Shown: positions 7,701-34,371, numbered from the stretch's first letter. The stretch: DNA of 64,000 bases from Botryllus schlosseri (GCA_051294905.1 CM119372.1:17858001-17922000), one strand, 5' to 3'. Translations and numbers: made by a program. Notes: a model not told the origin generated them from the sequence alone.

Positions 7701-10542
7701 GATTGGCGTGTTGGCTACTGCTGTATAACATGATAATGGGGTATTATCGGTAGCAAGTACCGATACATTTTACACTATGCTCAATATCAACGTAGCAATA
7801 CTCAGACGTTGAAGACATTTCACGGTCAGGCCTGGACCGTTAAGGCGTAAGCTTATATTCCCTTGCAAGTCCTCGTCGAAATTGTTGGCAAAGCGACGGA
7901 AGACAATGATTTTATGAGACTATTATATCATTTGAGTGCCCCATAGTTTATACATTTGGTGACGTTTAAAACGTCAATATGTACTTCAGCATTGTGGGAT
8001 TATGTGGCCCGAGTCGCTAGGTATTGTGTACATTAATATAGGCTATTACTTCACTGAAATGTAGGGTTGTAATTAGCAATATGACGTCACGAGGTTCACG
8101 TTCGTGTTCACACAGAACCTTTCAAAAAGGTTCGCGTTCACACGAACCTGAACCTTTCAGAGGTTCACACCATCCCTAGAAGATATGTAAAGTATGCGAA
8201 ATCATTTCCATGCTCGGCATTGTACACATTAACATTCAGAATCCAACTGGGAAGACATAAAGGCAGCAGCCAGAACACATAAAAGTTTAACATTTTTCTT
8301 CCTAAGGCTTGAGATGTTAACCACTTTTTTAAAACGAGGCATACTTCTAAACCAATGAAGAATGAACCCTCACGCTCAAACACCAACATGACTATAATGT
8401 CAGGCTCAATATTCATTTGTGAATATTCCCACCAATCACAACTGTGCAGGTGGTGATCATCGATACGGGACAGTCACGGCTGAGCGAATAGTATTTACTA
8501 CCCTTGCGATGACGCAATCTCACCAACTCACTAATCCCACTAAACGCATCCGCTCCGTACGGATCGTCTACTCCTGGCTTAAGAGTAGTCGGAATTAGTA
8601 CTCGAGAAAAAGTAACATCATAAATTTCGACTCAATTACCAGTAGACTTCGCAATTTACAAGAGACGTCAAACTAGCCACGAGTCGAAGTAGAAACGATC
8701 AGAAAAGTACTAGAGAAACAAGTTTCAAAGAAGTTGATTTTGTCAAAGGGTTGTATATTTTTTGACGTTAATCGGAGGTTTCTACTGCCAAAAGCACGAA
8801 GTGCATCTTAGCGACTAAGGCAAAATGAACAATGACCCAAGTAGGGCAATTTTCGAAACTAAATTCAGTTATCATTGCACAGGGCTAATTTCACCCAGCT
8901 GTTATGACAATTTCATACATAAGGCGATATAAACATACGTCAAAGCTACTTTCTACTTGACAAAATCAAAATTGTCAAAAGTGAGTAATTTTTCTTTACC
9001 TGAAACAAGTAGGCCTAAACATGGAAATAGTTCAAAAACATTCCAACTTGAGTAGTTTATGCAAGTAAGCTAAATCTACTTGAGCAATCTACTTTGTTAC
9101 TGAGTCCTTCTGGTTCTCAAGGACAAGTAAAGTAACACGGTAAATGTCTATCCAATGGAAAGTAGAAGTAAAGCAATTTCAAGACATGCCAAACCTCAGT
9201 AGGCCTACAAGTAAAATATATATGTACGAAAGCAGCTCAAAAAACGCAGTTGAAAGAAGTAGATTGAGATTGGGCTTCACGGACTATTTTTAGTATCAAT
9301 CGCCGGTTACAAAATTGCAATAGATGCGTGTTCAGTTGTTAACATGGAATCACAAACGTGGCGAAAGAGTAATATCGGCGCGATTTTCGAAATTGTTATC
9401 CATTATCCATTACCGACATACAGGGTCTACATCTCCCACTCAATGCAATTCACCCATGAAAATGATGAAAATGTATCCAAATACTACTTTCCACCTTACG
9501 AAAACTAAATTTCAAAGTAAGTAGTTTGGCTGCAAAATCTGTTGTAAGTTTAGGTGAAAGTAGTCTAAATCACTTTAGTTGTGGAGGCAGGCGAGGCACA
9601 CTCCGCCACTCGAGCAATCCTGAGAAGTAGAAGTACTTCAAGTATATTACTGACCACCACAGTATAGATTACATTACGGGATGATACTACATTATTCCAT
9701 GGTCTGGAAGGAGAGGCCCAGTAATATACTCGGTCAATAGCACTAACAGACTTTAAATTCGCCCACCTGTAGCAGTAAATTCTGATGATCTTCGTAAGTC
9801 GGATTGTACGACGCCCCGGCTTGAGCTACCTCCACAGCCGGCGTGTTCCTGTATTTGTATTGCTGGACAAAAGCATACGGAGGTAAATCACGCTGTATCA
9901 ATTACGCACGTAGTTGACTCACTTCAACTTTTTCACACGGTTTCGATTGGAGATGCTTGGGCCTGGTGTAGCTAACATGACCGCTCACGCTCTCGGTGTA
10001 CTTGTGGACGTCTTTTTTCTTGATTTCTTTATCGTAGAGATCCTTGGCATCGCTGGCCCATAAATCGAACGTCGGAACCTACATGCAAATACAGTTGACT
10101 CGAAATAAGTGCTACCATGAACAAAACGCGAAATGACCTTGGCTGTAGACTTTTTCCTTTTTAAACCCTTCGACAAGTTGACCTCCTTTTTTTCGGTGGC
10201 TCTTTTTTGCCTGCGCAGGGTTCGCTTACTCGCGGCAGTGGCAGACTTTACAAGGTCCGGTCGAGGAGTTATGATTTCGTCCACTTTCAGTCTTTTATTT
10301 TGCCATCGTTTCGCTTTGGTCTTGTTATCTTGCCCGGCGGTTTTGTCGAGAAAAAATATTTCGTGGTCCTCCTTCTTGCTGATGATTCCGCCAGTACGCA
10401 ATTCCAGTCTTTCGCCTTCTAAAGCTTCGTCGATATCTGTGATGTCGACATGCTTTCTCCAATTCTTTTTCTTGTTCCTGTTGACACGCTTCCTCTTGGC
10501 CGTTTTCCCAGACGGATTGTCATTTATAGTTACAGTCATCAT
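4722..10542 (-). CDS. NOP53: Ribosome biogenesis protein NOP53 (GLTSCR2/PICT1), 7 coding exons, 427 aa
   Basis: Exons 10542-10138, 10078-9923, 9862-9767, 6120-5818, 5174-5082, 5019-4886, 4818-4722 join in frame (1284 nt). Motifs RNKKKNWRKHVDI, IFFLDK, FDLW, PAVEVAQAGASYNPTYEDHQ and [40 protein letters not shown]. Confidence 0.95.
5445..5659. mobile_element. hAT (Charlie/Buster-type) MITE in NOP53 intron
   Basis: Ends cagcggtttccaaac...taggagtcactg; flanks aaatagcc/aaataacc (7/8 match). Confidence 0.6.
6190..6455 (-). ncRNA. Candidate long box C/D RNA in NOP53 intron 3 (may instead be a decayed MITE)
   Basis: C-like GTGATGT 6451-6445, D' CTGA 6425-6422, C'-like GTGATTC 6219-6213, D CTGA 6196-6193, about 72 nt upstream of the 3' splice site. 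A related inverted copy at about 8470-8582 argues for a repeat. Confidence 0.25.
6574..7096. mobile_element. hAT-like MITE
   Basis: TIR tagggctgggca...tgcccagcccta; perfect 8-bp TSD tccagagc. Confidence 0.85.
7194..8178. mobile_element. hAT-like non-autonomous element with GGTTCACG/GAACC subterminal repeats
   Basis: Ends tatggatggtgtgaac...gttcacaccatcccta; flanks gaagatac/gaagatat; related fragment at about 58120-58465. Confidence 0.75.
8581..9662. repeat. Degenerate AGTA/TACT-rich interspersed repeat family (end like cagaggtggtcagtaa)
   Basis: Ends ttactgaccaccacag. Related pieces at about 1-115, 43690-44920, 49569-50450, 52230-52370, 56930-57225, 57670-57810 and 63530-63820. Boundaries approximate. 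Confidence 0.55.
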
Positions 10543-11037
10543 AATGCTGGAAAAGAAAAGATGCGGTGATCATCCATTTGTAATTATCGAAATGAAATCT
10601 GCGAACCGACATAATCTGAACTAGGTACAGCAGAGTAATCTATTTATGATCCTACGGGATTTCATGTACAATCAAGTGATGTCATTAACAGCACCGTGTT
10701 GTGCACAGTAAAACACTGAGGGTATTTCTCATACTTATCGATACTGATCACCGTTCTATACGAAAAGAACCCAGATAAGCAGTCTATCGTACTTGCAAAT
10801 ATAAAGAAAAAGATAAACAGAACAAAATTTAGTGACATTCGTGACTATTGGTTCCTGGTCAGCTTGGCTCAGCACAATATATATAAATGCCATAATTATC
10901 GTGATGAATACCAAGATGATGCTATAATGATTTATCGAACAGAGTACAAACAGAAATGGAACAGTCAGGAAAATTACAGCTAAACTTTGACAATGAATAT
11001 GTAAATAGTTTATCCATTCAGACTGCAATACAACATT

Positions 11038-13152
11038 TCAGTCAATATTCGCAATTTTGCCATGCTTCATAAACCAAAGAACCATATTCACAAAGGCATC
11101 CGCTTCCGCTTCGACTTTACTGATGGGATGATTGTTGTCCTTGTACATCAGCACTTTGCAAATGCCGCCAAGCGCTCTATACATGTTAGCCCACTGAAGG
11201 CCTTGCGATTTCGGAACTCGAAGATCAACATCTCCAATCAGCATCAGACATGGAGCTTTCGCATTTTTAAGCAACGAAATCGGAGATTTTTCGATCATTA
11301 CGCCGTAGTCGTCGGCCGTTGGCAGCTTGTCGAACTCGAATATCTTCCCGGATTCGCAGTAATTCCAATCCGGAATATCAGTAGTTCCGTTCATAATCGC
11401 CATGTTAGTCACCGGATTTCGCACGCAAGCGGCCAAGTAAAAGTCTGGAAACTGACTGATGAGGTGGAGGGTCAAGAAGCCTCCGTGAGAGCCGCCAGTA
11501 ATCAGAACACGATCATAATCCCCTGTGTCTTTGAGTATATTCGCGACTTGCTGCACGTCGTGGACATCCTGCTTCCCGACACGGCCAGGCAACGAGTCAA
11601 TGCCATCTTGCCCAAATCCAGCCGACCCACGATAGTTTATTTGCGCCACCGTAAAGCCAAGTTTGCACAGTGCCACGATCGAGTGTGTAAAACAAGTAGG
11701 ACTTGATACATGAGGACCACCGTGCGGGAACATGACAAGTGTCTTAAGGTTCAACGCTCCGGTCGGTGAATAAAGAATATACTCAGGAGACACATTGGGG
11801 TACTCAACGTTGGGAAGATCTGGAACAAAAGAACGCACGTCCCAAGACATGCCGTCTACGTCTGCACTTGGTTTCAAGACAGTGTGCCATTTATCCACGA
11901 TACCATCTTGAATTATTCCGACTACTAATTCCGGAGGCGTGATTGGATCTGAATGACTCACCACAATGATATCATCATGAACGTCCAATACACGGTACCA
12001 ACCGCTTTTTGTGAGCAATGTGACGTCTCCGTTTGATAGTTTGATGGATACGGCGCTCAAATGTGAGCGGAACATGGACGACATAAACAGGAAAGATCCA
12101 TCACGTGAAAAACACCTCTCCGGCAACAGAATCCGATATATTCCTTGAAAGACGTCTTCACTGTTGGGTTGTTTCACGATATCAACCACAACGCTTGTTT
12201 TCACAGAGAACGATGAATCTCCCAAAATCACAGCGCACATCAACCGCGAACATTGGAAATGTGGTCCACCAATCTGATTTTCAAGATAAAACACACGCTT
12301 TCCGTCAGGGTGAAGACGTGGCGATCTAACAGCTACACTGTCGTCCGAAATTTGGTAACATTCGTGACTCTGAGTGTTGAGCAGGAAAAGCTTGCTTTCA
12401 CGGACAGGACAATATATCAACCCGAGGCGGTAGGGATCGTGTTTCCAGCCAACAAAAACCACTTGTTGATTATCGGTGACCCAACAAGCCTGACCGACAG
12501 AGAAGCCAATGGGAATATAATCCTCATAAGTATAGACCGATTCTTTCTCAATGTCAAACACACACAGAGTGGGACAATGCGCATCAACAAGTTGCTCCCC
12601 CCAATTTTCTTTCCAAACATGCTCATTTCCGGGATTTTCGTCATCTTTTTTCTTGATGTTGAAGAACGAACAGCTCTTTGCCTCCTTCTTCTCGGCGATA
12701 TATAACAGTTTCTTATTGTCATAAGACCATTGGAATGAAGCGAATTGGTCATTAGATATCACGGCACCATGCTTGTCCGCGTCTTTCAAGTTAACATTGA
12801 CGATTTTTCTTCCTTCCGACCATACCTCCAAATATTGGGAGCTGGAATCTTTCGACACTACCTCACGGATTACAGCTTTCTGGTCGCCGGAATTGGAATA
12901 CGACGACAGCAGTACTTTGCTGAGTTCGTCTCCAGGAATTTTGGCTAGAATTTCAAGATTCGGTCCGTGGAATCCGAAAACGGTAGTATTTAGAAACGAT
13001 ACATTTTCCGACCTCTCCAAGTCTCGTTCCTGCCAAGTGCTTTCAAGTTTGTACCGGGAGTTGAAGCCGTTCAGCAGCTTTGCTTTTGATTCGCTTGGAA
13101 TCTTGGCGATGCGTCGGTACGTTTTTAAAATTTTTTCAAGATTCAAAGACAT
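11038..13152 (-). CDS. APEH: Acylamino-acid-releasing enzyme (acylpeptide hydrolase, peptidase S9C), uninterrupted 704-aa ORF
   Basis: Motifs ENWGEQL, RLGLIYCPVR, PHGGPH, NYRGSAGFGQ, nucleophile GGSHGG, Asp in DLRVP and His in NNHPIS, ending with EADAFVNMVLWF. Confidence 0.95.
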   Translation of the reverse strand: MSLNLEKILKTYRRIAKIPSESKAKLLNGFNSRYKLESTWQERDLERSENVSFLNTTVFGFHGPNLEILAKIPGDELSKVLLSSYSNSGDQKAVIREVVSKDSSSQYLEVWSEGRKIVNVNLKDADKHGAVISNDQFASFQWSYDNKKLLYIAEKKEAKSCSFFNIKKKDDENPGNEHVWKENWGEQLVDAHCPTLCVFDIEKESVYTYEDYIPIGFSVGQACWVTDNQQVVFVGWKHDPYRLGLIYCPVRESKLFLLNTQSHECYQISDDSVAVRSPRLHPDGKRVFYLENQIGGPHFQCSRLMCAVILGDSSFSVKTSVVVDIVKQPNSEDVFQGIYRILLPERCFSRDGSFLFMSSMFRSHLSAVSIKLSNGDVTLLTKSGWYRVLDVHDDIIVVSHSDPITPPELVVGIIQDGIVDKWHTVLKPSADVDGMSWDVRSFVPDLPNVEYPNVSPEYILYSPTGALNLKTLVMFPHGGPHVSSPTCFTHSIVALCKLGFTVAQINYRGSAGFGQDGIDSLPGRVGKQDVHDVQQVANILKDTGDYDRVLITGGSHGGFLTLHLISQFPDFYLAACVRNPVTNMAIMNGTTDIPDWNYCESGKIFEFDKLPTADDYGVMIEKSPISLLKNAKAPCLMLIGDVDLRVPKSQGLQWANMYRALGGICKVLMYKDNNHPISKVEAEADAFVNMVLWFMKHGKIANID

Positions 13153-14514
13153 ATCGTATCAGGCTAGTGAGGTGAGGCTATGGCCTCTACTCTATCTGTC
13201 GATTTTTTTCTGTTATATCAAACATGAAATTACCATAAGGGCAAAATAATAAAGCAAATATAACTGCTGGAGCAGCAATTGTCAGAGTTTAATCAGCACC
13301 TGAGTCCATGACAAATTATTAGTCATCTTTTTCACGCATATTCGGAATGCATAGTATTCATGTTGGTGTTATTTTGTGACTGTTCCTGTTCCTATAGTGG
13401 CACGGTAGAATCCAAAGAGAGACTGTTTGTTTACTGTTTCCTTGATTCGACAATCGAAATACCGATAATATTTCAGTATATGTCAGTCGACTCGCTCTTG
13501 CGTCTTGCGCATATCATTCACTATTCAGTGCCATTCTCTGCATGTACCGGTATATCATGATATATTTTAATAAGCATTAGGCATCAAACTATATAAGTCC
13601 GGCAAATAAATCACCTCCCCGCCGTTAAAAAAAAACAGACCGATATCGTGAAAAGAAAGCATACCGGTGCCTACAGCTTAATTTCAGTACTGAAAATTAT
13701 TACCGTACCAAACTTGCCAACGTGCGCCTTTTGCAAGTACAAGTAAGGAGCAGGGAAGCTGCTAACGATATACGTACCGAGCCAATCGATCATAGCCGCT
13801 GAGCTTGGTTCTCGATACAGTTCACTGATTATACCGGTGGCATCTCGCGACCCAAGCCTCACACGTCAAAAAATGCATTTTTAATATTAGTATTCTACGA
13901 TTTTACGAGCATGTATTCATAACATGGAGAACGCACAGACAGCAGTTGTACCCAAAGCAGCTCTATGATTTGAGTTACCATATTTTGGAATCGGGAAAGG
14001 AGGAGTATAATTCGGAAAAATGGTAAATTTTCCCGACTTTGTGGTTGGTTGACTAAAAAAAAGGTCGTCACTTTCGTTCGGAATACGAATTTCCTATTTA
14101 GCGTCATTTATGCCCATTTCTTAGCTCTAGAGGAGGACGAATTACCAAAAAGGAGGACATTTAGGCGTCCTTGGAGGGCATTTTCTAAAACCTGAAAAAG
14201 GTGGACAAATCCTCCTAAATAAGGACGTATGGTAACCCTATGATACATTTCTGACGGACGCGATTCAAAATAGGGGTGCATTATATTGCTCTGCAGTCTG
14301 CGCGTCGCATTTGTACTGCAGCTGTCTACTCGCCGGATTCCAAGGACGGGACACTATTCAGTGCCGACTGTTTCGACGACCGGACATATCAATATCGACG
14401 GTTTTATCATAGCCTTTACAAACTATGGTTTTATGGAACTAGCGAAGGTACATTTTAGCCAAGGTTTTATCGCCACCGACCTTATTGACCTAAACTTCAT
14501 GTCTTCGTGTGTCG

Positions 14515-18919: not shown

Positions 18920-19387
18920 CAGGGACGGGCAACATACAGCCTGGCTCACAGACAGTTTTCGGTCAATCATGATAATATGGCCCGCAGTCACAGCCCCGAT
19001 TCTCCACTACTTGCTTACGATGTCAAATTATAGTGACTGTAGTAGGTTAATCTTACTTTTTCTTCGGACATAAATTTGTGATCGTTAGTTATTCTTCAGT
19101 TATTTATTGTCTTTGTGTCGGACAAGCAGCCAGAGTTCAAAGAAAACCTGTTCACATATATGATCGACCGCAAATGTCTCATTAACTTCAACAGCTAGTT
19201 ACATCAATAAAATCATTGAATACTGTTTTGGTCTCTATGCTTCAAACCTGAAGTTTACATTAAATACGATTAATCCTAAATGTAAGTGGATGAATACGCG
19301 TTCAATGTATCGATTCAGGCATCCGGCCCGCGAAGTAGTTCATTTTCCCATATCCGGCCTGCCGACTGGAGAAGTTGCCCGCCCCTG
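18920..19387. mobile_element. hAT MITE nested in an older MITE (about 18712-19453)
   Basis: TIR cagggacgggcaa...ttgcccgcccctg; perfect TSD caataggg. Confidence 0.8.
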
Positions 19388-20058
19388 CAATAGGGGGTCC
19401 AAAGTAACACTCGAAATTTAGGGGTCTACGCTAAAAAAGTTCAAGAACCCCTGAAACATTCTGCAAACACCACGAAAAACACCATGCAAACCCTGTATAA
19501 TGTCGACGCCATGCCGATTCATACAACACGAAATCGATCGACAAGATATGCTTCGGTTAAACAAATATTATGATGGGCACAATAAAAAAACGAATGAAAC
19601 CTTAAATTTTGAACAGGCTCCGATAAGTGATGGGCACAATGATGCAAGTACCGACCGTTATGATTCAATTCGATTGGTGAGAGGTGATTTTTTCAGGTAC
19701 TGAAAATTTACAACCCTTTAGACTAACAGTTACATCGTCAACAGGAATTGTAGCCTCGATGCTTTTCTGGACATGGAAGAGACACAATTTCTCAAGCACT
19801 GAAACTATCACCCCTTCCGACTAAGAGTAACATCATTAACGAGGATTGTAGTTTCGATGCTTTTCAAACATCAATCAGCCGTGTCACAGCATCGAAAACA
19901 AGCAGTACTCGGTCACACACGATTTTCCAATGCGGCCGCATCCACACAAGTGTAATACTCTATTACTCGACTCAACGCCAGACACTGGATTGCGAATCGA
20001 ACCACTCGGACACTCGATTTTACCCGGCACCTGTCCCGACATCACACCGCAAAATCCG

Positions 20059-23000
20059 TCACGATACGCACTCGTGCGTCGTGTACTCGTTGTACTTATC
20101 GAACCAAACCCCGCACTTTGTGCACCCCATATTGCCGCCTTTGCGCGAAAACTTATCGCCGAGATTCGATTTTGAGTCCGTGACCCAATCGCAACCCTGC
20201 CCCTCGTGCTTCGGCGCCACAGACAGATCAATTGGCCCAGGGTCGTCTACCGTTAGCGCCGGGGCAGAATCGTCATCTTTGATAACAGTAACGATAGTTG
20301 TCGTTGTCTCACCCACGGCCAGACTTGCCTCGGCCATGTTCCTCAAGACAGGTTTAGTGGCCGAAACCAGCGCGTCGTCGTTTCCGTGTCGGTCCAGAAT
20401 GTGCCTCAGCATGGCGGCACGCTCCTCGAAAATGGCCGCACACTTGGGGCACCGGTGCCCGGGAGCCTTGGCACACTTGTGGTAGTTTGACGAGGCGCGG
20501 TACGATTTATTGCACTTGTTACACCGCGACAGCGCCTTATTGGAGTGGCTGTTGCGGTGCCTGGTCATGTGGCTGCTCTTGTCCGTCGAGTAGCTGCACT
20601 GGTCGCACTTGAATTTCTTGTCCAGGTGGGCGCGGGGGAACGTTGTTGTAGCGGGAGGCGTCGCTTTGACCGAAGGCGGATTCTGCAATGGAGGTAGGCA
20701 AAGACGATTATTCATAGTTCTGGTGTACAACACGAAGCGGTAGTCGAAATCTCTTCCATCACAAACTCAAAACGCCCTCATTTTGAAATGTCAATTCCCA
20801 ATACATTCACAATTCAACGATTCGTATATCATCAGTGTTGCATATTAGCAAAAATTGACAATTCTTATCGTAGTGTGTGAACACGGAGCATATACATTAA
20901 AATCGTCCCGCCATATGTGTTATGGTACAAAATCGAAATACGAAAAGCGTGCGACAAGCAGCACGCATCAGAACGGAACGGAACTCACCTTTACCTTCTC
21001 CACGTTTTCTTTACGTACGTTGGTGTGATTCTCATTTTCTGGCATTACCGTCGGAATCGCGGCGCTCTTCAACTTCAAGCCGTTACGAAAACAGGTGTTT
21101 ATGATCTCCTGTTGAAAGAAACAAAAGACAAGTGAATCATCGAGACCGGTTAACAAAGCAGAGCAAAGCAGTCCGCGATTCTACTCCACGTAGACGGAAC
21201 ATTGAATAATACTCCGGGAAGATGAGACGGTATGTTGTTAGTGAGGCTGGGAACAACCGATTCGAGTAGCAGAAATAGCGTTCACATTAGGAATAATATT
21301 TCATTTGTCTTCGGAGATAGCAATTTGAAGCTAGTTGAGCCAAAAAGTCGCCTCAGCACCACAAACAAAACATCGCTACATACGTGCTCGCTCAAGCCGT
21401 GCCGTTGCAGGTGTCGCTTGTAATGATCTGAACGCCCGGTGCCGTAGCTGCACTTGGGACACTTGAGTGGTTTGTCGGCAGAGTGCGTCATCAGATGCCG
21501 CTTGTGATGGTCGCTGCGGTTCGTGACGTACTTACACATCGAGCAAGCATAACGGGGCGTCTCGTCGTCGCAGGGCTTCGACCTTTTTGATGTCTTCCGG
21601 TGACCTCCACCGGACACTGAAGAAGATAGAATGACGTCAAAGTGATGACACTACAAATAGATGAAATTTTTGAAAAGAAATTCAGTTACTATTTTCTACT
21701 TCACAAAATCTAATCATCTCTTATCTCTTTACTTTGATTAATTGACGATCTTAGCTATTGCAAGGATGTGAATGGTTTGTTTACAGGTGATTCCAAGTTA
21801 TATCAGCAACATAACATAGTTATCCACTGGGTCTCAGGTTCAAAGCCAAATTCGGGGATAGGTCTGGTATCTAGCTCCGAGTGTAGCGAATTCAATTTCG
21901 TCAAAATTGAGCCCCCGTCTTCAAATTACTACTGAGTTACTAAAAGTGGATATATTGTGCCCACCGCCCACCCTAACATCAACTTCAATTACGTTGACAT
22001 TGCATGCGACAGTAACGGCCATAAAGCAGCGTAGCTATGTTGTTGGTCCGTTTTACAGTGTAATGAATAGAAATGACAGAATAGAACAAGCTCCTGATGG
22101 CGAATTGAAAATCTTTTCCCAATCAAATGGGGTCACGGCTCAAAACCTGGTGTAGCAACTAATAGTCTTAAAAATCACTCACGTGCAACATCAATTTCAA
22201 ATATTTTTAGCGGCCTTTTTCCTACACGGAAATTGGAAACCAACATATCATACGGAAGCAAGCTTAAAGGGGAGACAACGTGACATATTTCAGTCATTAA
22301 TATCTGATTCCTAATTGGACTAAATCAGACCTGGGCAAAGTGAGGCCCGCGGGCCAAATGCGGGCAGCGAAGCCATTCTATGCGGCCCGCGAAAGGCTAA
22401 ACCGTAACTTTGTTTACTTCGAAGCCTGTTCATTAATGTGCCACGATCAGGCTGCCTACATACCTTGCATGTGTAATCCAGATTAAAAATAAAGGCAATG
22501 TGGTAAAGTATGAGTAACAATTAAATTCACAAGAAATAACTCTTTACATATAGTTTAGGTCAAACCTTTGTTGCCATTGTCACATTACGCATTATACGGT
22601 ACGAGTTTCAAATTTTTACGTTAGGTGTTTCCAAACCCCTAATTCGTAAAACAAGTCAATCAGTGCTCGCGATTACTATAGGACTCATACCTATCCCCCA
22701 TAAAGACTGAACGGCGATGTCAAAAGAGGAAGCCGAAAGCTGAAAATCAAAGAAGGTTTAGAGCACTAAATATTTGTATACTGGAGTTAGGGGTAAACCC
22801 GTCCTTTGCCGAGCATGTCGCGTGTCGCCAAGATTAAGGATTTTAATTATGACAAAAACACGAAACACTCCGTCAAGGAAGGGCGAATTTCAGAAAAACT
22901 GCAAACCTCAGTCAACACCAAGGCTATTTCAGCTGCACATTGCTCGGAATGCTGCGACCAAGACAAGCTTTGTACTATCCCATATATATTTCAGTGCAGT

Positions 23001-26000
23001 GGTTCACGAACTGGGGGGCGTGAAAGCATCTGGAGGGAGGCGCGAAGCCGAAGTTATAGAAAAATTTTTCCACGCTCCGCGCGATTTTCTCAGAGTTCAT
23101 AGTGTAGTTATTGCTCTGTGTATTGTCCGACTGTGCTGTTACAGAATTCTCTCATCAACAACCATGCCATCGAACCATCCATTGCGATTACTAGCACTCT
23201 GGTTGCTCTTTTTAATATGTTGTGATATCATGATAGGATGGGGGTTGAGCGCGAAATTTCGCACTATCATAAAGGGGGTGTGCCTAAAAAAGTTTGAGAA
23301 CCACTGTTTTAGTGTTTTAATGGAAGAACGTAGATAGGGGTCTAAAGAGAGTATCATGTTTCATGTATCATGTTTAACATTGTTTCGAATCATGGCTGCA
23401 AATAGATATCTTTTTAATTAACCGCCACTTTCTCATTACGCGGGAGATGGGGAGAATATAGCTAAAATTTTTCACTCGGCCCGCCAACGTATTTTCTACT
23501 TTTCGGTTGGCCCGCGGAGGAAAATAATTGCCCACCCCTGGTCTAAATGAAGGGGTGGCCAACCTGCGGCCGTGGACACGTAATTCAATTAGTATGAGTT
23601 GGCGGCCGTCGACATGCGATTTGAATTCACGAATTGACTCCCGATTTCTTGATGGATTTTAATTAATCTTGAAATTTTCTTCTCGCTGCGCGCGATTCAA
23701 TGTGACTTCATTTTTCAATTTTAACATAATAGGAGCTTTGCAATTATAGCCCCCATTACAGATTCTAACAGCAGAGGAAAATGATGTGCCCCATATAGAA
23801 ATACCAACTCGGAATCGTGTATCCCTCACTATACCGACAATCCTGATGGGAGGTCAAGAAATAACAGCATGTAACAAAGTGACTAACAACAATTGGCCCA
23901 CCCATGCATCATCATTTATAACTTGTCCTAAATTTTCGAAAACACCCCCTTCATCAACTCTACCGGTGAATCTGATCACATCCATGGGTTGAGCAAGGAT
24001 AAATGTTTGATAGGAATATGTAAAACTACCGTTATTAATCACGAAATTCATTAGTAAGTATGAAAATAATTTCGTGCTTCGAGCGACAATGGACAGCCCG
24101 AGTTCACCAGAAATGGACACTCTAACATGGGCAGCTAGTTCATTACGACTATGCCCTGGAATGCGGCCGTAGGCTACATGAGTAGTCAAAATGCGGCCGT
24201 GAATGGCAAAAAGGTTGGCCACCCCTGGTCTGTGACATTAATTTACAAACACTTCTGAAAAGTGAAAACTACGTATTTTCATTACTACGCCAGAAAAAAC
24301 AAGGATGGTAATAGCCTACATTGAGAAGTGTTGATGATACGTATAAAATAATTTGATTTTCAAACTTAGAGCCCCATAAAACAAAGTGGAATCAAATGTA
24401 TGCAGTTAAACAAAAACACTGTTACATGATGTTATTGGCATACTAGAGATAGTGAAGTTTTTATGATTTCCTCGGCGAAGTATTGAAAGATCAAGCGTCT
24501 GTTTTTTGTTCTAGAATGAAAAACCTGAATTCGGTCGACAATATACTCAAACTCGATATACCTTTAAAATTTGCGGTGACTAGGAAATTGATATTCTCGC
24601 ATAAAATGAAATTGTTGCAATCGATTGACATTTTGACATATAACACTCAATCTACCTATGAGAAATGGGTCAGTGTGTATCTCGTATTGGGTGGAATGAC
24701 GATACTGAAATAGATACACCAGCATCTACCTTGCATATTGCAGTGTATTTTACTGTTAGCAAATGCATGCAATGAATCGCCAACAAAATTGGGCAGGAAT
24801 ACGTAATCAGATACGGCTCTTCCTTCTATCCTAGCGGAATGTGGAATTGCTAAACTCAATGACAAATCACACACCCCTACATCGTCAACAGGAGTCGTGC
24901 AAACAGAGTCACTATTCTACCCATGACTGACAGGAACACGAAATCAAAGCAAAACGCAGCCAACCTTGCTTGAAAGTTAGATGTTCATCAGATTCGTCGG
25001 TGCCAGCCGTCTTTTCCGCTGAAGACATGAAGACACCGATTAAATTGAAGTGACTGCACAAATTTCAGCTAGCGAGGGAGTTTTTTGCCAAAAATTTCAG
25101 TCAGAAACCGACATTAAATGGAAACTTGAACATAGTCGCAATTATTCGCTAAAATACAAATGTCCTAGGACCAGCGCGCTATTAATAGCGGATTAAGCAC
25201 GGCTCACTCAAGACAGGTAGACGGGGACTTTCCAAGACGATTTACAGCAGTTCAGTCAGTCGGGAATTTCCAAAACGGGACGACAAATAACCAATTGATC
25301 AATAATTATGTACGCTGATAACTTTAAACACCAACGGTAGCAGAAATTTTACCTTTTACAACAGTGAAATAGCAGTTTCCATTTTGACCGTTCACTGGCT
25401 CTTGCCCTAAGAAAAAAAGGATCTGTGACTCGAAGATCTCATCGCCAACACATGTCTCTATCTATATCTACTGTGACACAAACCAGACAAAGACTGACAG
25501 GAACTTTGCCACCCGTGCCTAGCAAAGTATGGTAATCGCTGTCTCAGAGTTTCCAATAACATGTCAGAATCGGTAAAACTACCAGGGGTATATTCACGCC
25601 CACAACTAGGAGCACGGTATGTTAAATTCTACTTACTGAATACCACAAATTTAAAAGACTTACTGCCACGACAGGTTGTAAAGCATTCAACATAACGAAT
25701 CCCCTTACTCAGTTTCCCTGCAAATCCTCATGAAACCCTATTCAGTTTAGGCTATTTGCACAGCGCATGTTCTAGGGAAGGTTCTCGGAATCTTGGCGGC
25801 TGGTTTACTTACTTGATGTCGGTAATTCCTCAGAAACCTTCTTGATGGAATCGACCTCGTCGTTCAGCAACTGATGAAATTTTAGATTCGAAGGTATATG
25901 CCCGTTGGAGAATATGTCCGGGAACAGCCTCTCTCCTAAATAAAAATAAATAGATGCTGATATTTTGATCATCTACCTACGTACGTTATCCCCGACAAGG

Positions 26001-29000
26001 AGCATTTGTTTCGCAGTAGGGTGTTTCGAGATAATCAGTGAACTGATTGTTCTGATTGAACTGATCAGTGAACATTCTTAACAATAGTAGGCCTACCTGT
26101 TATTATGTCTTGTTTTGCCAGATTTCATTGAACTCGTATAGGATTTGAAATTGTGGAAAATTATTGGCAGAAGCTTCGGAACCTGTATACCGATATGATA
26201 CTGCCGTCAAAATCAATGGAAAAAAGATTGGGTCATATTCGTAAGTCTGATCTCTGGGCAGAGAAAGGTCGACAGTCTGACTGTCTATAGACATTAGACA
26301 TCTATCTAGACTCTGATAGATTTCACCCATGCTGATCGTGGTAGGACGCAATAATTTAAAACACACTCTCTAATGGGACAATTTATCCTCATCAAATCAA
26401 CATGTACTTTCAAAAACCACAGATCTGTATTTATGACGAGTGCATGTCAATTTTTCATACAATTTGTGACATTCGACAGAGAAATCAATATTCAATCAAA
26501 ATCCGTAGCGGTAAGCCTTCAAAATGGTTAAAAATTCAGGAATATCCATACACTCTACACCAACACGGAAGCAAGAGTAGTTCTTCTTGAAAAACTACCT
26601 CTTAAGATACAGGGAAGACCACTATGCTTATCTGATTCAAGTAGGTTGGCCCCATGTAGGTCATAACAACAGTATAAAATCATAAAGGCAAATGTGGCTG
26701 TCACTGGGAACTTACTCATAGCATGACCCCATTGAATACAAGATATTAAGCAGAGCTGACGAATTCCAGTACTCTACAATATGACTACTAAAGGACACCT
26801 ATTCCATGTAGGAAACATGTTTTTCAGTCAGTGGTGAGTTATGTTTTTATTGTAGGCTATGTAACAAACATAATCACTGCCAACAACAGTAAATTATCTT
26901 CGGACAGATTCCGCAATTAATGAGAGCCTATTTTAGTTGCTACACAATGCGACCGAAGTGTAATTCATGGAAGTGCACTGCACAATCACACACGTTTGTC
27001 ATATAAGTAAGCCATTTCACAAACAGATTTCGGGGGAAAGTTTTGCCATCATGGAAAATTGACGTGTCAGCCCACTTGGGAAAACCCGGAATTGAAGTAT
27101 GCTCATAAAAGGAAGAAATTTGAGAATTTAGACAGTACAGCACTAGGCTTTAGGTTTCAGTGGAAACAATACTGCAATGAATAACTGCCGTACCAGATTT
27201 AGATTATCTCTAAGTCAGTACGATTCCTCGGATCCAGAAATCTGTATATTGTAACATAACGTCCTTGGCTGATTAGAATACAATGATTTCCATCGATTTT
27301 CAAAACCTCCTACACACATTTTATGCTGGTGCCACAACCGTGATGGCCCAGACTTAGCTATGACAGCTGGCTTAATTACAGTGCTGCCAAACTCACACTC
27401 AAGTGATTTACAGGACGGTAAAGACATTCTGCCACAAATATGCAGTTTATAATATTATCAAGCTGTTTTCATTGTATACATTTGCTATTAAATCCTCCTC
27501 AGTAAAAACAACGAATAAGCATTACGTGCCACATCACCATCATTACCCCCAAATCCACATGGAATTCGATTCCCATTACAGTTACGAACCATCATCCTCG
27601 TCATAACATCTTAGCCGACTACAAAAGAAATTGCTACATTTTCGACAATTGGCTTTTCGTAGTGCTGTCATAGCAACGCAGAATCGTCATTTCAACCAGA
27701 TGTTATGTAGCCATTCAAGAAGGCAAATAATAGCAGACTTGCTATCTATGTTTCAATGTCTTTCACAAGATGACATTTCGCAAAGGACTTGGAAAGAATT
27801 CATCAACAGTGGACATTGTTTGCAACTCTGCAAAAACTTGATGTTGAAAATACTCGACCCCTAAACTAACACAGACCCTGGCCGACCGTCATACTACATT
27901 AAGAACGTAACACTTGCCAAGAACTTTTATCGTCAAGTTTAAAACTTAATTCAATGCAATTCACCACAACGTTCTGGGCCGCAAGGAAACTATTGTCGAT
28001 GTATGATATTCTTCTTTGGTCCGAAAAGACTGTTTCGCTTATCCTCTCAAGTCAATACATAAAAATCTTGATTTCACTGATTTAAATCTGTCCTTTGCCT
28101 ATGTGGTTTACCAATTACAACAAATAATTTGATTATGTAACAGTGAACAGTGAACAATGAACATCTTTGCTAATGTGAGCACATATAGGTCACAAACCAG
28201 TTGTGAAGTCCCTACAGGCGACAGCGCACGCACAGCGACTCCATGCCATATTTCATTCAGGAACCGTAGCCTATCCAGTTTAGTTTCAAATGTAATTTAC
28301 CAAGCAAGCCATATCCCACACTGCTCGACTATATCTGATCAAATCAAAGCCACGGTACGGATAAGAGAACAGTGGCTGCATCACCCATGACCACAATAGT
28401 TGAATCACAATCATTAGAACAGAAGCAGCTGTACCAGTTTATTTGGAAGTTTTCCAAACACACGCTTGAAAAAAAAGTGATGAACGGAATGAATCTATTG
28501 AAATAGGATCTCGAAAAGTAATACACCACCAGCTCTCGAAGCAAGACACCAGAATCAGAAAGCGTTGCAGTTGATGTAATGGACTTCCACAATCACGTTG
28601 CTTTAGCCTAAATATGTATTAAAAAAAATGACCGACGGAACTCAACGATCCCGAGAAGCCACATAATAGTACCGTACCGATACACGACAAACAACATAAA
28701 AAATATCATTTCTGCAAGATTTCTATTCATTTCTGGAAATCCGGCATCACGAATACAAGCAAAGGCGGTAAAGATGATTAGAACCAATAAGAAGAATTCT
28801 AGTAAAAAACTGCATGGGCGTCTGTCGAACTGCATCGACCACTAGTGAATTACACGAGGCAACATCTATCAATAGATCAACAGGTATGATTCCTCCGACA
28901 ATAAATATCTGCGACCACCGGCACAATGGTTTCAAACAATCAGTGGTCAGCATCTTTAAAAACGTACTTGGTACAAAATTGGAGTATTTGGTTGCATCAA

Positions 29001-32000
29001 ACCGCCTGGCAATCAAGGTCACACCCAATGGGCGCCATAAGATCCCTCACTCATCTCGAATACTTCAAGGCGTGATCATCACACAAAAATGGCACCCCTC
29101 CTGAAAAAAAGCGTTACGAGTCTGTGTCGTTATTCAATCGTTCCTTCAAATGAATGTCGTGCAATTGGTCGGTATTTTGCAAGGACGGAACGCCGTAAAA
29201 ATCGATCACTTTTCTAGACCGGTGAGCGGCTATACGCTGCCGACTCTGTTCCAGCCTAGCCGCCCGCGCCATCTCAGACTCCGTCCTTCTGCGGTCGGCC
29301 TGTCGTAGCCTATTCGACGACAGGCGTAACAAACGTGCGTCTTCCGATTCGGTTTGCCGCCGTTGCGCTTGCCTTATTCGGTTCTGAGTCAGTCTGAACT
29401 GCCGGGCTTCCTCCGACTCGTTTTTCCGGCGCTCTGCTTGACGTTGTCGATGCTGCGCCAGCCTTATTGCACGCTCCTCTTCAGATTCATTTTGACGACG
29501 CATGGCTTGGCGCAGCCGATTTTGAGTGAGTCTCCTCTGGCGCGCATCGTGCGATTCCTTCCTTTTACAAGCAGAACGGCGAGCAAGCTCTTGCGCATTC
29601 GGCAAGTCGCGAGCAGTTGTTGTGCTTGAAACCAAGTCCCTCTGAAATTCCCGTGTTTCAGCTCTTTCAGACGCAGGCCGCGACGCACTGGAGCAGGCTG
29701 AAATCAAAATTTAGACAGACGCTCGCGCGGTCTCGCTCCATATTTCAAGCAAAAGTTACAATTTGACGCGAAAAAGCAACAGACGGCAGCTGACAACCGA
29801 GAGCGCGATAGCCTACTGACGAAGCGTATGCGTTCAACAGTGGCGGTGTAGGGCTAATAACCAAAACCGCAAAATGAAACAATATACCTTCCATGTTAAC
29901 ACGTGATAAAGAACCGCACTATGATAGCACGGAATTATCGTGCAACAAAAGTACAATTAATGAACGAGCTGCAAAGAGCACATGTAAATAATGTTAGTGT
30001 TCTCTCCAGGGCTCGATATTGGCAGGATGGCTTACAGTTTTTCTGGGTTATTCAGGCTCGGGATTCAGCTTGGGCTGCCCAAAACGCACCTCGACTACAG
30101 AATCGCTTTTCCAAGAAAGACACATTCATGAATTGTCGCATGTTGCTCACACAACCAGCTGAAGGGTTACAATAATTAGTCGAAATCTGATCCACACATG
30201 CAATAATCCAAAAGCGAAACCTGGCATAAGATGAATTCTTAGCCAGAACAATCAAATGGAATCTTTGATGTTACGCATTTACGCAATCCGCCAGTTCCGA
30301 TAACCCTAAATAATGCAAAAGGCATGTCTTCTATCGGCAAACAATTCTACATCCCAAATAGTGCACCCAGTTTCTGTGTAACATACTGTGAACACTTCAT
30401 CATATCTCACATGTCCCTATCCTCAATATGGACAACAGTCATGTCTACGTGTGGATTGTGGAATGTAACACATTATCGTTGAAATTTTAGCGAAGAACAG
30501 GAAGTACTAACAAGGTAACCACCAATCAGCAGCAAATGGCTATCGACTCAAAATCACAGATGCTTATGATCACCAGCATTCAGGCCTGCGATTACTTTGT
30601 CATGATACTTGGACATCATGAAAGACTGACAGCTTATCTAAGTGTTCACTGTGCACATTCACTGTATGAATTCCACCTAGTATAACACATACTAGAAATC
30701 ATTTAGGACCAGATACTCTCTCCATACCACTGTAAATATTTTCTATCGTGAAGATGTTCCAATTGTACTTGAATTGAAGTGAAAAATCATGCTGTGCAGA
30801 ACCATTTCTTCCACATCATTAATTAGGTATGATCCAATAAAGCATCCTGACTCAGTAATAAACAGGGAAAATGAAATTCATAGTTTATATCTTAAACTAT
30901 CAGTAGACCTACACAAAATACAAGCTTTGAGATCGGGACTGAGACGTATTCGTAAAAGCACAGCATATATAGGCATATATAGTATTCCACAGTTTCATGA
31001 CTGGCATAAATTGGAATTGCTCGCCCAGTAGATAGTAACTAACCTATTTTTGAGCATCGGTTCACTGGGACTTCATAAAAGGTTTTCATGCTTTTTCATT
31101 TTAATGCTGATGATTGAATTAAAACGTAAACGGTCAGTTATTCTCTTATAAACCTGCGGTGCAATATAACTTTTAACCGAACTTTTTCAAAATGAGAATC
31201 CATCCTAGTGGTGGAGATTGCAAAACAAGGTAAGGTTTTATAGCTCAGAAAGTGTTCAATGGGAGCTCCAATAATTAGTAACAAACACTCTTCGAAACAA
31301 TAGTGATTAGCTTCGGTGCTGTTCGTCAGAATCTGTGACAGCATTCAAACACCGGGTTTCAATGGACAAGCATAAGCCCTGGGGTCCTGACTACTTTGGA
31401 AGAACAAGCAAGTAGAAACCATGTAAATGATCCCCGACTCTATATACTTCCTGAACTACATGCAAAGGTTAAGACACACAGAAAAAGAATGTTCAAATTC
31501 TTTGTTGCAACCTCAGGTCAGTGATTGCTCTATGTTTGCCAACAAAACTGACCAGCACGATACCGTACCATAAGTCACGCCAAATAAAATTATACTTCGT
31601 ACAGGCCAGGCAGGAATAAGCAGTGTGATCACTCACTGATTAGATAGCCGTTTATGTGATTAAGTTGGATACAAAGGAGTTACTTATACTACAAGGCAAA
31701 GTGGTAAGTCAAATAAGGTTGCTGAAATACAGTTTCTCAAGTCAAACTGGCAGTGAGCCAAAAGTACAGACGCTGCCACCAAGATTTACAGCAAGATGTA
31801 ATTAAATTTTTTCTGCACTATCGCGGTAATTCGACGATGGAGATGTGAGGAATATAAGGGCTAAGTCTATCAAGTCGGAAGGAATCACCATTTTTCCTCT
31901 TGATGCAATCCTGCATTGTTGAGAATGTACACTGTACAGCGACGCCACGAATACCAGTTTTAAAAGCAAGAGAACTTGGTTGTCCTACCACTATGCTCTC

Positions 32001-32927
32001 ACGTTGTTCACATATTCTCATATGCGCCTTATAAGTCATCTCTCAAAACGACAATGGCAATCTTGGATGAAAAAAAACTGCACATCTTCGGCAATGAATT
32101 AGAAAGTTGTGATTGTCCTAATTACCAGTCCTGGATACTGAAAGCATTTCACATGTACAAACAAACACAATTATGACTTAGAACTCATGTTGCCTAACAG
32201 TGGTCACTAATTGCTGTTTCAATTCAAAATAATAGTTTTACAAGGAGAGAAGCCTATACTATAGCTATCCAAATAACTCTCAACTACACTTGCCAGCATA
32301 AAATCTTCCCCTTCAAGTGGTATTCTCACTATTTTAGTAACAAAATATTAAATTGTTCATGACATTGAAATTGCAATAAATTTTTTAGATTTCGAAAACA
32401 ATGTTTTTACACTAAAAGCTTATATACAGAAATTTCACGTGACCTGCTAATAAACTTCACAATAGGAGTCTGTAAGCTGACATAGAGAAATAAAACCGCA
32501 AGAGACACAAGTCACAATGTGCAGCCTGAGCCTGCAACTTACCACTTTCTGAATTTCTCGTCTTTGGGATAAATTCCTGAGGGACGTCTTCATGCCGATT
32601 CGTTGGCTTGCTTGCCGGGCTCTGCTCAAGTTTCCTCTGTAAACAATCTGGCGTATCTGGAAGAATGCAAGAACATAAAATCCTAACCATGCCAGTACGC
32701 GTACAGGAACTTTCATGCAGATCTTCAATTGCATAACAGAGTGAGCAATTTACAAATGCTCAATTGCCCATACCTTCGGATCCTTCCTCAATGAAACGTT
32801 GAATTTTCGACATTGTATCGTCTTCGTCTGTAGATGCGGGTAATCCATCTCCCTCGTCCATATAAACGACGACATCCTCCTTTGCAATTCTGGTGGGTTT
32901 CGAACTTTTACGTTTAGATGCCATCAT
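20059..32927 (-). CDS. Unnamed C2H2 zinc-finger transcription factor, long isoform (7 coding exons, about 473 aa)
   Basis: Exons 32927-32774, 32656-32543, 25935-25813, 25018-24965, 21616-21384, 21108-20989, 20682-20059 are all GT-AG, phase-compatible and stop-free (1422 nt). Four C2H2 fingers (CSMC, CPKC, CDQC, CPKC) and two C2HC-like fingers (CNKC..HKC, CTKC..HEC). The finger exons are firm; their linkage to the 5' exons is inferred from splice phase. Confidence 0.75.
22326..23540 (+). mobile_element. Non-autonomous Charlie/SPIN-like hAT element with a decayed transposase N-terminus
   Basis: Ends cagacctgggcaa...ttgcccacccctg; flanks gactaaat/gtctaaat; frameshifted remnants KYLYTGVRGKPVLC, VAKIKDFN and AATKTSFVLSHI. 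Nested MITE at 22997-23306 (flanks tttcagtg/ttttagtg). Confidence 0.75.
23549..24227. mobile_element. hAT MITE abutting the previous element
   Basis: TIR aggggtggccaacc...ggttggccacccctg with internal gcggccg repeats. Confidence 0.7.
29114..29697 (-). CDS. STPR-repeat coding exon, probable alternative terminal exon of the 32927 gene (isoform about 283 aa)
   Basis: Acceptor ttttgatttcag at 29698 is phase 1, matching the donor after 32543. Five tandem 23-aa repeats at 29560-29216 (e.g. NESEEERAIRLAQHRQRQAERRK, NESEEARQFRLTQNRIRQAQRRQ); stop TAA at 29114. Confidence 0.75.
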
Positions 32928-33204
32928 GCGCGCATCCAAATCGAACTATGCCATGTACAGTACATATGACTATCTCAAGAACAACGCGAGGAGCTGATGG
33001 ATCTCAACATCGCGAGTCAGCGGAATCACTCACGGATAAGCTCTCATACCTCGCGGTCCAAAAAGAAAAAACACCCCCACCCGTGCAGCGCAAAAGGCCC
33101 GCAACAAATCTACGCCTGAGTGCACATTACTTCAGTCTGCGTGATCAATCGTTGCGCTGAAAAGATTGACTGACCCTCGTGTTCAACCGGTGAAACGCCT
33201 ATAG

Positions 33205-34371
33205 CAGGGGTGGGCAAACTTTTGAGCTCGCGGGCCGCATTCAACATCTGAATCCATTTGCGGGCCGCACTATATAGAATTGGGATTATAAACCAAAACG
33301 CAATATTGGTATTTGATTACATAGCGAGGACATGGAGATAATATATGTGCTTATTTAAAACAAACCAAATATTGTGTTGACGATATCGTACACGCGTCAG
33401 AAACATAGTGGCGAGATTTCATAGGCTCGTAGACCTCTATAACCAATTTGTAAAAACTATAGAGATGAAAGTCGGTTGTCCCGCTTTTTAGAACAGGATC
33501 GAAATTTAGATCTGTGAGCAGCGATCTGTTCATAGATTTACTAATTCCAGTTTTGGTTCTGTTCCATGACACACAATGCTGACAGCATCATAACCATGTT
33601 AGCTTCAAACACGCTTCTTCTATGTGTAGATATAATATATTATTACCCCGATTCTACGCATAGAGAGAACGAATCTACCTAAAACACGCGCGATTCGTTT
33701 TTATAAGCACATCACTGAAATAATTAAACCTGGAGTGGCCAATCTGAAATCACACTGGTGATCCGAATTATGTCAATCTCGTTTAGGATTTCTGTGATGT
33801 TCAGCAGTTGAAACCTTTCAAACTGCGCGGGTCTTGAGATCGGGCTGTCGCGCCAGAAATTAAACATAAAAAAGAATATAGGAAGTATTTACCCTAGAAC
33901 AGTGGTTCTCATTTTTTTAAGACACACGCCTCCCCCCCTTATGATGGTGAAAGATTTCGCGCCCCCTTATCGTCACAGTACAAAATGCAACCACGATGCT
34001 AGCAGACCTAACAGATAGTTCACTGGCATGGAAGGTTACGACAGTGGATGAGAAACATGAAATTCAGACTAAATACAAAGCAAGAATTCTGAATTTGAAG
34101 TAAATCGCGCGAAGCGCGAAAAATTTTTTCGTTTAGCTCAGCTTCGCGCCCCCCTTTCAGATGCTTTCACGCCACCTAGTTTGAGAACCACAGTCTTAGA
34201 ATTATCATGGTCAATTATACTAAGAAAAAGTTTAATCAAGTCCCTGCATTAATTCGATTTTTAGTACGCATTTATCAATATTTAAAAGAAGTTTCCATTG
34301 ACTCTCGCGGGCCGCACAGAACGGTGTTGCGGGCCGCATGCGGCCCGCGGGCCGTAGTTTGCCCACCTCTG
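33205..34371. mobile_element. hAT (Charlie-type) non-autonomous element with a nested MITE at about 33900-34193
   Basis: TIR caggggtgggcaaact...agtttgcccacctctg; perfect TSD gcctatag; gcgggccgca subterminal motifs. The nested element resembles 22997-23306. Confidence 0.85.

Follow-up and report, generated by a model that had tools for sequence, protein, structure and literature searches.

Here we report what is probably a single animal gene with two alternative last exons in Botryllus schlosseri, in which a shared N-terminal head is followed either by STPR repeats or by zinc fingers. The gene lies on the minus strand of a stretch of 64,000 nucleotides (GCA_051294905.1 CM119372.1:17858001-17922000), hereafter the window, which starts at about 17.86 Mb in a 495-Mb assembly; positions are counted from its first letter. 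The region has about 41% G + C and GT-AG introns, as expected of animal-type DNA. The STPR domain is rare and little studied, and reads the shape of the DNA groove. A first-pass annotation of the window, made from the sequence alone, had proposed one gene with two alternative DNA-binding modules, and it is this proposal that is weighed here. The open-access literature searched yielded no account of a gene whose alternative isoforms carry STPR repeats in one case and zinc fingers in the other.

The transcript evidence comes from four studies. Three (X2, X3 and X4) are represented by Logan contigs, which had been labelled as RNA by guess; their splicing, with minus-strand introns of the GT..AG type, shows that they derive from RNA. 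For the fourth (X24), about 6% of a raw RNA-seq run was read.

The shared coding part consists of two exons on the minus strand (as are all features of the gene given below) and encodes about 89 residues. Shared coding exon 1 (32774..32927) carries ATG codons at 32927 and 32924, of which the second is the likelier start because a related protein, P0071, begins with MASKRK; the exon is matched by residues 1-62 of P0071 in a tblastn search. Its 5' untranslated part extends over at least 32928..33198, as one X3 contig reaches 33198 and one X4 contig reaches 33096, both unbroken with exon 1; the former position is a minimum set by contig reach, and the start site would lie at or beyond it. Shared coding exon 2 (32543..32656) ends in a phase-1 donor (GTG/GTAAGT), which is the fork point of the gene, as two joints leave 32543. 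From this donor the translated frame is open into both phase-1 acceptors, 29697 and 25935, without stops, and AG and GT flanks were found at every exon boundary. The first-pass annotation had read the exons (32927-32774 and 32656-32543), the donor and the acceptors in the same way, and its coordinates were verified by program.

The joint between the two shared exons (32774>32656) is present in contigs of X2, X3 and X4 and was not seen in X24, and the same holds for the joint from the fork point to the zinc-finger chain (32543>25935). The joint to the STPR exon (32543>29697) was found in one contig of X4 and in two raw reads of X24, which begin at two different positions, and was not seen in X2 and X3. 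All RNA joints are of the GT..AG type and on the minus strand. The X4 contig of the STPR form spans 28414-29697 and reaches 30 bases into exon 2, with a depth of 15, and the finger contig of the same run has a depth of 20.5; intron cover in this run is zero. Both contigs end 30-31 bases into exon 2, which is the behaviour expected of an assembly graph at a real fork. Both junctions that had been singled out for a check in RNA, and not just one of them, were therefore observed.

These joints also bear on whether the window holds two neighbouring genes, namely a head-plus-STPR gene and a finger gene with a promoter of its own between 29114 and 25935. Only the layout speaks for such an arrangement, in that the STPR exon has its own stop and poly(A) signal and lies upstream of the finger exons. 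Against this, 32543 is joined directly to 25935 in all three contig runs, an X3 contig is continuous from the 5' untranslated region through exon 1, no other joint into 25935 was present among the joints listed, and P0071 carries head and fingers in one protein of 505 residues. Two separate genes are thus very improbable. The finger chain, for which a separate first exon had been considered, needs none because it is joined to the shared exons in three of the four runs.

Alternative terminal exon A (28414..29697) consists of the STPR coding part (29697-29114) and a 3' untranslated region. From the acceptor at 29697 it reads 193 codons to a TAA at 29116-29114, with 46 residues of open frame past the joint before the repeats start. 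The five STPR repeats (29213..29557) begin at exon residues 47, 70, 93, 116 and 139, exactly 23 residues apart, and Glu1, Ser2, Arg6, Arg9 and Leu10 are present in all five. The five 23-residue repeats and the stop that had been read from the DNA are thus borne out. In the repeats of Bombyx FMBP-1, according to the excerpts available of PMC4856987, Glu1, Ser/Thr2, Arg6, Arg9 and Leu10 are conserved or contact DNA or phosphate. The exon matched the Pfam family STPRs (PF21107) in three stretches with 32.4 bits (cut-off 27; E = 1.3e-07), and its sole match in a sequence search of the PDB was FMBP-1 (5d23; E = 0.0074, 19.6 bits). All sequence criteria applied to the exon place it in the STPR domain family.

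The exon is present in a single copy, and a protein search of the genome returned no second STPR locus in the 495-Mb assembly. A search of the genome with the PF21107 family gave no signal, and it gave none on the window's own STPR exon or on control genomes either.

Two AATAAA hexamers follow the coding part. The X4 contig ends at 28414, 24 bases past the first (28438..28443), which would serve the STPR exon as its proximal poly(A) signal; the second (26846..26851) may be a distal signal of a form with a long 3' untranslated region, as X3 contigs end 26 bases past it. The X3 contigs in question (28190-28599, 27466-27770 and 26820-27163) reach 26820, and depth falls beyond this point. On the basis of these contig ends, which do not prove cleavage, the pair is taken to mark two poly(A) sites, one near and one far.

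Several observations weaken the case for one gene with two alternative last exons. The STPR junction is carried by one contig and two reads, the latter being all that the only true RNA-seq run, read to about 6%, contributed, and the junction is absent from the contigs of X2 and X3. One X3 contig (29472-29747) crosses the acceptor at 29697 unspliced, and in X2 the entire intron has low cover (0.5-2.8), compared with 3.5-5.3 on the STPR exon, so that part of the signal on the STPR exon may stem from pre-mRNA or from a transcript started in the intron. The closest STPR relative, P0005, is a protein of 180 residues whose initial Met falls within the repeats and which has no counterpart of the shared head, so that a stand-alone STPR transcript is possible; for the same reason, the head-plus-STPR combination may not be conserved. 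A word-index search with the first 90 residues of P0071 at the 'longer' length setting gave 56 candidates, none of them at E <= 1; because P0071 itself, which is a cluster member and not a representative, was not returned either, this blank has no bearing on whether head plus STPR occurs elsewhere.

Taken together, the missing junction in two runs, the unspliced X3 contig, the thin intron-wide cover in X2, the headless P0005 and an in-frame Met inside repeat 1 of the window exon would fit a gene whose real product is the finger protein, with the STPR form either a minor by-product of intronic polyadenylation or unspliced RNA, or a stand-alone STPR protein started in the intron. We regard this as unlikely. 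The X4 contig and the two X24 reads carry an in-frame joint between exon 2 and the STPR exon, the depth of the STPR exon in X4 is near that of the finger contig at zero intron cover, the frame stays open for the 46 residues ahead of the repeats, and P0005 may itself be a cut or unspliced contig. The absence of the junction from X2 and X3 is weak evidence because contigs drop rare forms. Moreover, the STPR coding sequence looks maintained because it is single-copy and matches P0005 in register, repeat by repeat, with 61% identity over 97 residues. A gene with two alternative last exons therefore remains the preferred reading.

The second form continues from the fork point into exon 3 of the finger form (25813..25935), which is 66% identical to residues 91-128 of P0071. 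It is followed by a 54-base in-frame exon (25353..25406; joints 25813>25406 and 25353>25018 in X2, X3 and X4, AG and GT flanks, phase 1 in and out) and by a further exon (24965..25018) supported by frame, RNA joints and alignment. Zinc fingers 1 and 2 are encoded by the next exon (21384..21616), which is joined in RNA, matches zf-C2H2 and zf-H2C2_5, and is 90% identical to residues 158-225 of P0071. A linker exon (20989..21108; frame, RNA joints and tblastn with P0071) leads to terminal exon B (19350..20682), which encodes fingers 3-6, has its stop at 20059 and continues in a 3' untranslated region to about 19350; it matches zf-C2H2, is covered by X3 and X4 contigs, and is 39% identical to P0001 and P0071.

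The chain drawn in the first-pass annotation from 25935 via 25018, 21616, 21108 and 20682 has correct coordinates and an open frame to the stop at 20059, with no internal stop, but the 54-base exon at 25406-25353 had been overlooked; because it is included here, the finger form has 491 residues, not 473. The six zinc fingers announced there likewise stand in part: four are standard C2H2 fingers, and two look C2HC-like by eye (CNKC...HKC and, in the last finger, CTKC...HEC). The family search that had been suggested for both modules placed the STPR exon above the Pfam cut-off and gave zf-C2H2 matches for the finger exons.

P0071 combines the shared head with the finger chain, and the 54-base exon is all that it lacks; of 449 aligned residues, 251 are identical (56%). 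It was reached through a word-index search with the finger chain, which returned P0001 (39% identity), whose cluster contains P0071. Head plus fingers is thus conserved in another species, as judged from protein alignment. The 54-base exon is present in all three contig runs and corresponds to a gap in the alignment with P0071; it may be lineage-specific or alternatively spliced. A search of the PDB with P0071 gave generic C2H2 matches only (CTCF, ZNF568 and others), which name no family. An Atlas look-up of the finger chain returned Pegasus/Ikaros-like and generic C2H2 clusters with at most 151 shared features, which was taken as a lead only and not used as evidence. In the 3' untranslated region of the finger form (19400-20400), 30 of 546 positions differ between the X3 contig and the window, compared with 2 of 276 in the STPR-exon contig of this run; X3 may represent a divergent haplotype or strain, and the numbers are too small for a test of selection.

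The two DNA-binding modules would be carried by separate proteins, a conclusion that is supported because the STPR exon ends in a stop and lacks a usable onward donor. Its coding part contains 23 GT dinucleotides, of which 10 are phase-compatible with the acceptor at 25935, and none of these ten falls in the stretch from repeat 5, which ends at 29213, to the stop. The strongest agrees with the donor consensus at 6 of 9 positions, and its use would truncate the domain after repeat 3; the two located in repeat 5 agree at 3 of 9 positions, compared with 5-8 of 9 in the real donors of the gene. No joint from the STPR exon into the finger exons was present among the 15 of 26 joints listed. The earlier statement that no phase-1 donor near the end of the STPR exon would join it onward is in agreement with these counts.

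A single protein with fingers and STPR repeats in one frame, produced by an unnoticed splice, would have a precedent in vertebrate ZNF821, which, as far as the available excerpts describe it, carries two C2H2 fingers on the same polypeptide as a C-terminal STPR, and in the insect protein P0054, where an STPR-like stretch is followed by fingers. Here, the stop at 29116-29114, the lack of a phase-compatible GT after repeat 5 (the others being weak) and the lack of an STPR-to-finger joint among the joints listed stand against it, as does the position of the STPR exon upstream of the fingers on the DNA, which is the reverse of ZNF821. Such a protein is hardly credible at this locus, and no single open reading frame with both modules was encountered among the joints listed.

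The relatives of the STPR exon were collected with an exhaustive profile-free search, which returned 68 proteins at E <= 0.001, the best three near 1e-15. A Pfam scan found the STPRs domain in 54 of the 68, Helitron_like_N and/or DUF6570 in 8, THAP in 2 and C2H2 fingers in 1, and none has fingers upstream of the STPR as in ZNF821. The lone relative with C2H2 fingers is P0054, annotated as insect 'myoneurin isoform X4', whose order of modules was given above. A word-index search with the STPR exon at the 'near' length setting gave 832 candidates, none at E <= 0.001; this blank reflects low sensitivity because the exhaustive search found the 68 proteins. The two relatives that combine STPR with THAP are P0008 and P0044, the former also with OTU and zf-C3HC; judged by domain content, these pairings would be a further sign of STPR shuffling among proteins of the mobile-element type.

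The same set of relatives raises the question of origin. The STPR exon could have begun as the DNA-binding front part of a Helitron-type transposase that inserted into the intron and, through splicing, became joined to a host repressor head, which would be compatible with one gene and two last exons. Eight of the 68 relatives carry the Helitron-type domains named above, and one of these eight, P0004, is the second-best match (72.7 bits); the low Pfam score of the window exon (32 bits) is shared by several Helitron-linked STPRs. The excerpts available of the HELIANO paper list STPRs among the domains stably included in HLE1 Helitrons, and those of the preprint of Cosby et al. present alternative splicing as an established route of capture. 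At the window locus, on the other hand, tblastn with all 71 stored proteins returned nothing beyond the repeats, that is, no remnant of Rep, helicase or DUF6570, and the exon is single-copy, with no other STPR locus found in the genome. The best match of the exon, P0003, is a non-transposon insect protein, and a signature of Pro3 and Ser/Thr2 fails to split Helitron-linked from other STPRs. Capture from a Helitron is therefore a possible but, at this locus, unsupported origin, and a rather doubtful one; transfer between host and Helitron may run either way. A conserved cysteine motif past the STPR stop was considered and rejected, as the apparent alignment beyond the stop is drift.

The head common to both forms may indicate what they do. 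Neither of the two shared exons matches a Pfam family, nor does the head of P0071, and the shared head would thus lack a folded domain. Two stretches of the head are conserved between the window and P0071, namely the first 13 residues and an acidic stretch of 16 residues over the joint of exons 1 and 2. The N-terminus contains RKSSKPTR (32889..32912), a candidate motif for interaction with NuRD through RBBP4, which reads RKKSRPTR in P0071. According to the excerpts available of PMC11602157 and PMC3020727, the N-terminal NuRD-interaction motif is RRKQxxP, with RK(x)xxPxK/R as an internal version; interaction depends on the second Arg, the Lys, the Pro and the basic residue two places after the Pro, tolerates loss of the first Arg and needs the Gln only in part. 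RKSSKPTR fits this consensus and matches all essential positions, with Ser in place of Gln. We infer that the head may recruit NuRD through RBBP4. Because this conserved motif fits the consensus, both isoforms are most likely repressors, which would recruit one co-repressor to two kinds of DNA site. CtBP binds motifs of the form PXDLS, and the finger form alone carries an additional candidate of this type, PIDLS (20221..20235), which was read from the translation and aligns with PMDLT in P0071.

Transcription of the gene would begin upstream of 32927, and exons 1 and 2 would supply the head of about 89 residues to either product. In one fate of the transcript, 32543 would be spliced to the near acceptor at 29697 and cleavage would occur near 28414, possibly also at about 26820, which would yield a predicted protein of about 280 residues with the head and five STPR repeats. 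In the other, the STPR exon would be skipped and 32543 spliced to 25935 and onward, yielding 491 residues with the head and six fingers. By analogy with FMBP-1, the STPR array would read wide major grooves of AT-rich DNA, and the fingers would read a set of sites of their own. The full scheme, in which a common NuRD-recruiting head serves two unrelated DNA readers through a choice of splice and poly(A) sites and the STPR reader stems from a Helitron-type transposase settled in an intron, appears improbable as a whole.

If both proteins are made, the choice of the last exon would allow one locus to direct a single co-repressor signal to either of two sets of sites that are unrelated. Were the STPR reader derived from a Helitron, the gene would be the first Helitron-derived host-transposase fusion, and a naturally occurring gene that can read DNA either by shape (STPR) or by base (zinc fingers). 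For the evolution of STPR domains, which are found in one chain with fingers in ZNF821, as alternatives to fingers here and on Helitrons elsewhere, the locus is a useful data point on how modules are combined. It also matters for annotation: without a check of the junctions, the STPR exon resembles a separate small gene or intronic noise.

The surroundings of the gene are as follows. Two stretches, one within an intron of the gene (22409-24356) and one next to exon 1 (33123-33600), have very high depth in X2 (up to about 3000 and about 8000), with many loose ends and odd joints, and look like an abundant transcribed short repeat or a MITE family. The highly repeated element at the latter starts near 33123, just upstream of exon 1, and the intron at about 24240-23520 contains inverted arms of the GGCCAACC...GGCCGC type, as judged by eye. 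An unbroken frame of 706 codons on the minus strand (11041-13158) encodes APEH_N and Peptidase_S9 domains of the acylamino-acid-releasing enzyme type and is possibly a retrocopy because it is intronless in an intron-rich region. The ordinary neighbours are exons of a Nop53 ribosome-biogenesis gene (5728-10569, minus strand) and a Gpi16 (GPI transamidase) fragment (1994-2509, plus strand).

Among known systems, host-transposase fusions are said to involve vertebrate cut-and-paste transposases, not Helitrons. The cases in the excerpts available of Cosby et al. resemble the window gene in that a DNA-binding module of the transposase kind is reached by alternative splicing from a host effector head; a difference is that no transposon remnant flanks the STPR exon of the window. 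The excerpted accounts of NuRD-motif proteins (FOG-1, SALL1/4, BCL11A/B, ZNF827, ZNF296 and, with an internal motif, ZNF512B) likewise describe R-K...P at the N-terminus of a finger regulator, but in the window the Gln of RRKQ is Ser, and the motif begins one or two residues later than in FOG-1.

With FMBP-1 of Bombyx mori (5d23, 5d2q, 5d2s), the STPR form shares tandem repeats of 23 residues, the residues Glu1, Ser/Thr2, Arg6, Arg9 and Leu10, and the position of the repeats C-terminal to a non-globular head. FMBP-1 differs in having four repeats instead of five, and the similarity is weak (19.6 bits, and 32 bits to the Pfam family); the excerpts available of its published account mention no sharing of exons with a finger protein. 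Like the window gene, ZNF821 combines C2H2 fingers and STPR in one gene, but in the excerpts available both modules are in one chain with the fingers first, whereas the window gene would place them in separate proteins, with the STPR exon ahead of the finger exons along the DNA. In an Atlas look-up of the STPR exon, which serves as a lead only, the nearest scores were 0.83 and 0.80, the latter for 'Zinc finger protein 821 (Fragment)'.

The closest architectural parallels are the Drosophila genes lola, mod(mdg4), fruitless and broad, in which a constant head is joined to alternative DNA-binding terminal exons. They have one promoter, constant 5' coding exons and mutually exclusive DNA-binding 3' exons, and constant 5' exons with mutually exclusive DNA-binding ends are also found at the window locus. 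In those genes the head is a BTB domain, whereas the head here has no Pfam domain, and the window gene falls outside the lola group because it lacks BTB. It also has two ends only, one contained in a single exon for which a separate poly(A) site is predicted, the other spread over a chain of several exons. Finally, the ends of genes with a constant head are normally of one class (C2H2 or FLYWCH in the lola type), whereas the two ends of the window gene are structurally unrelated, one an all-helical STPR array and the other a set of zinc fingers.

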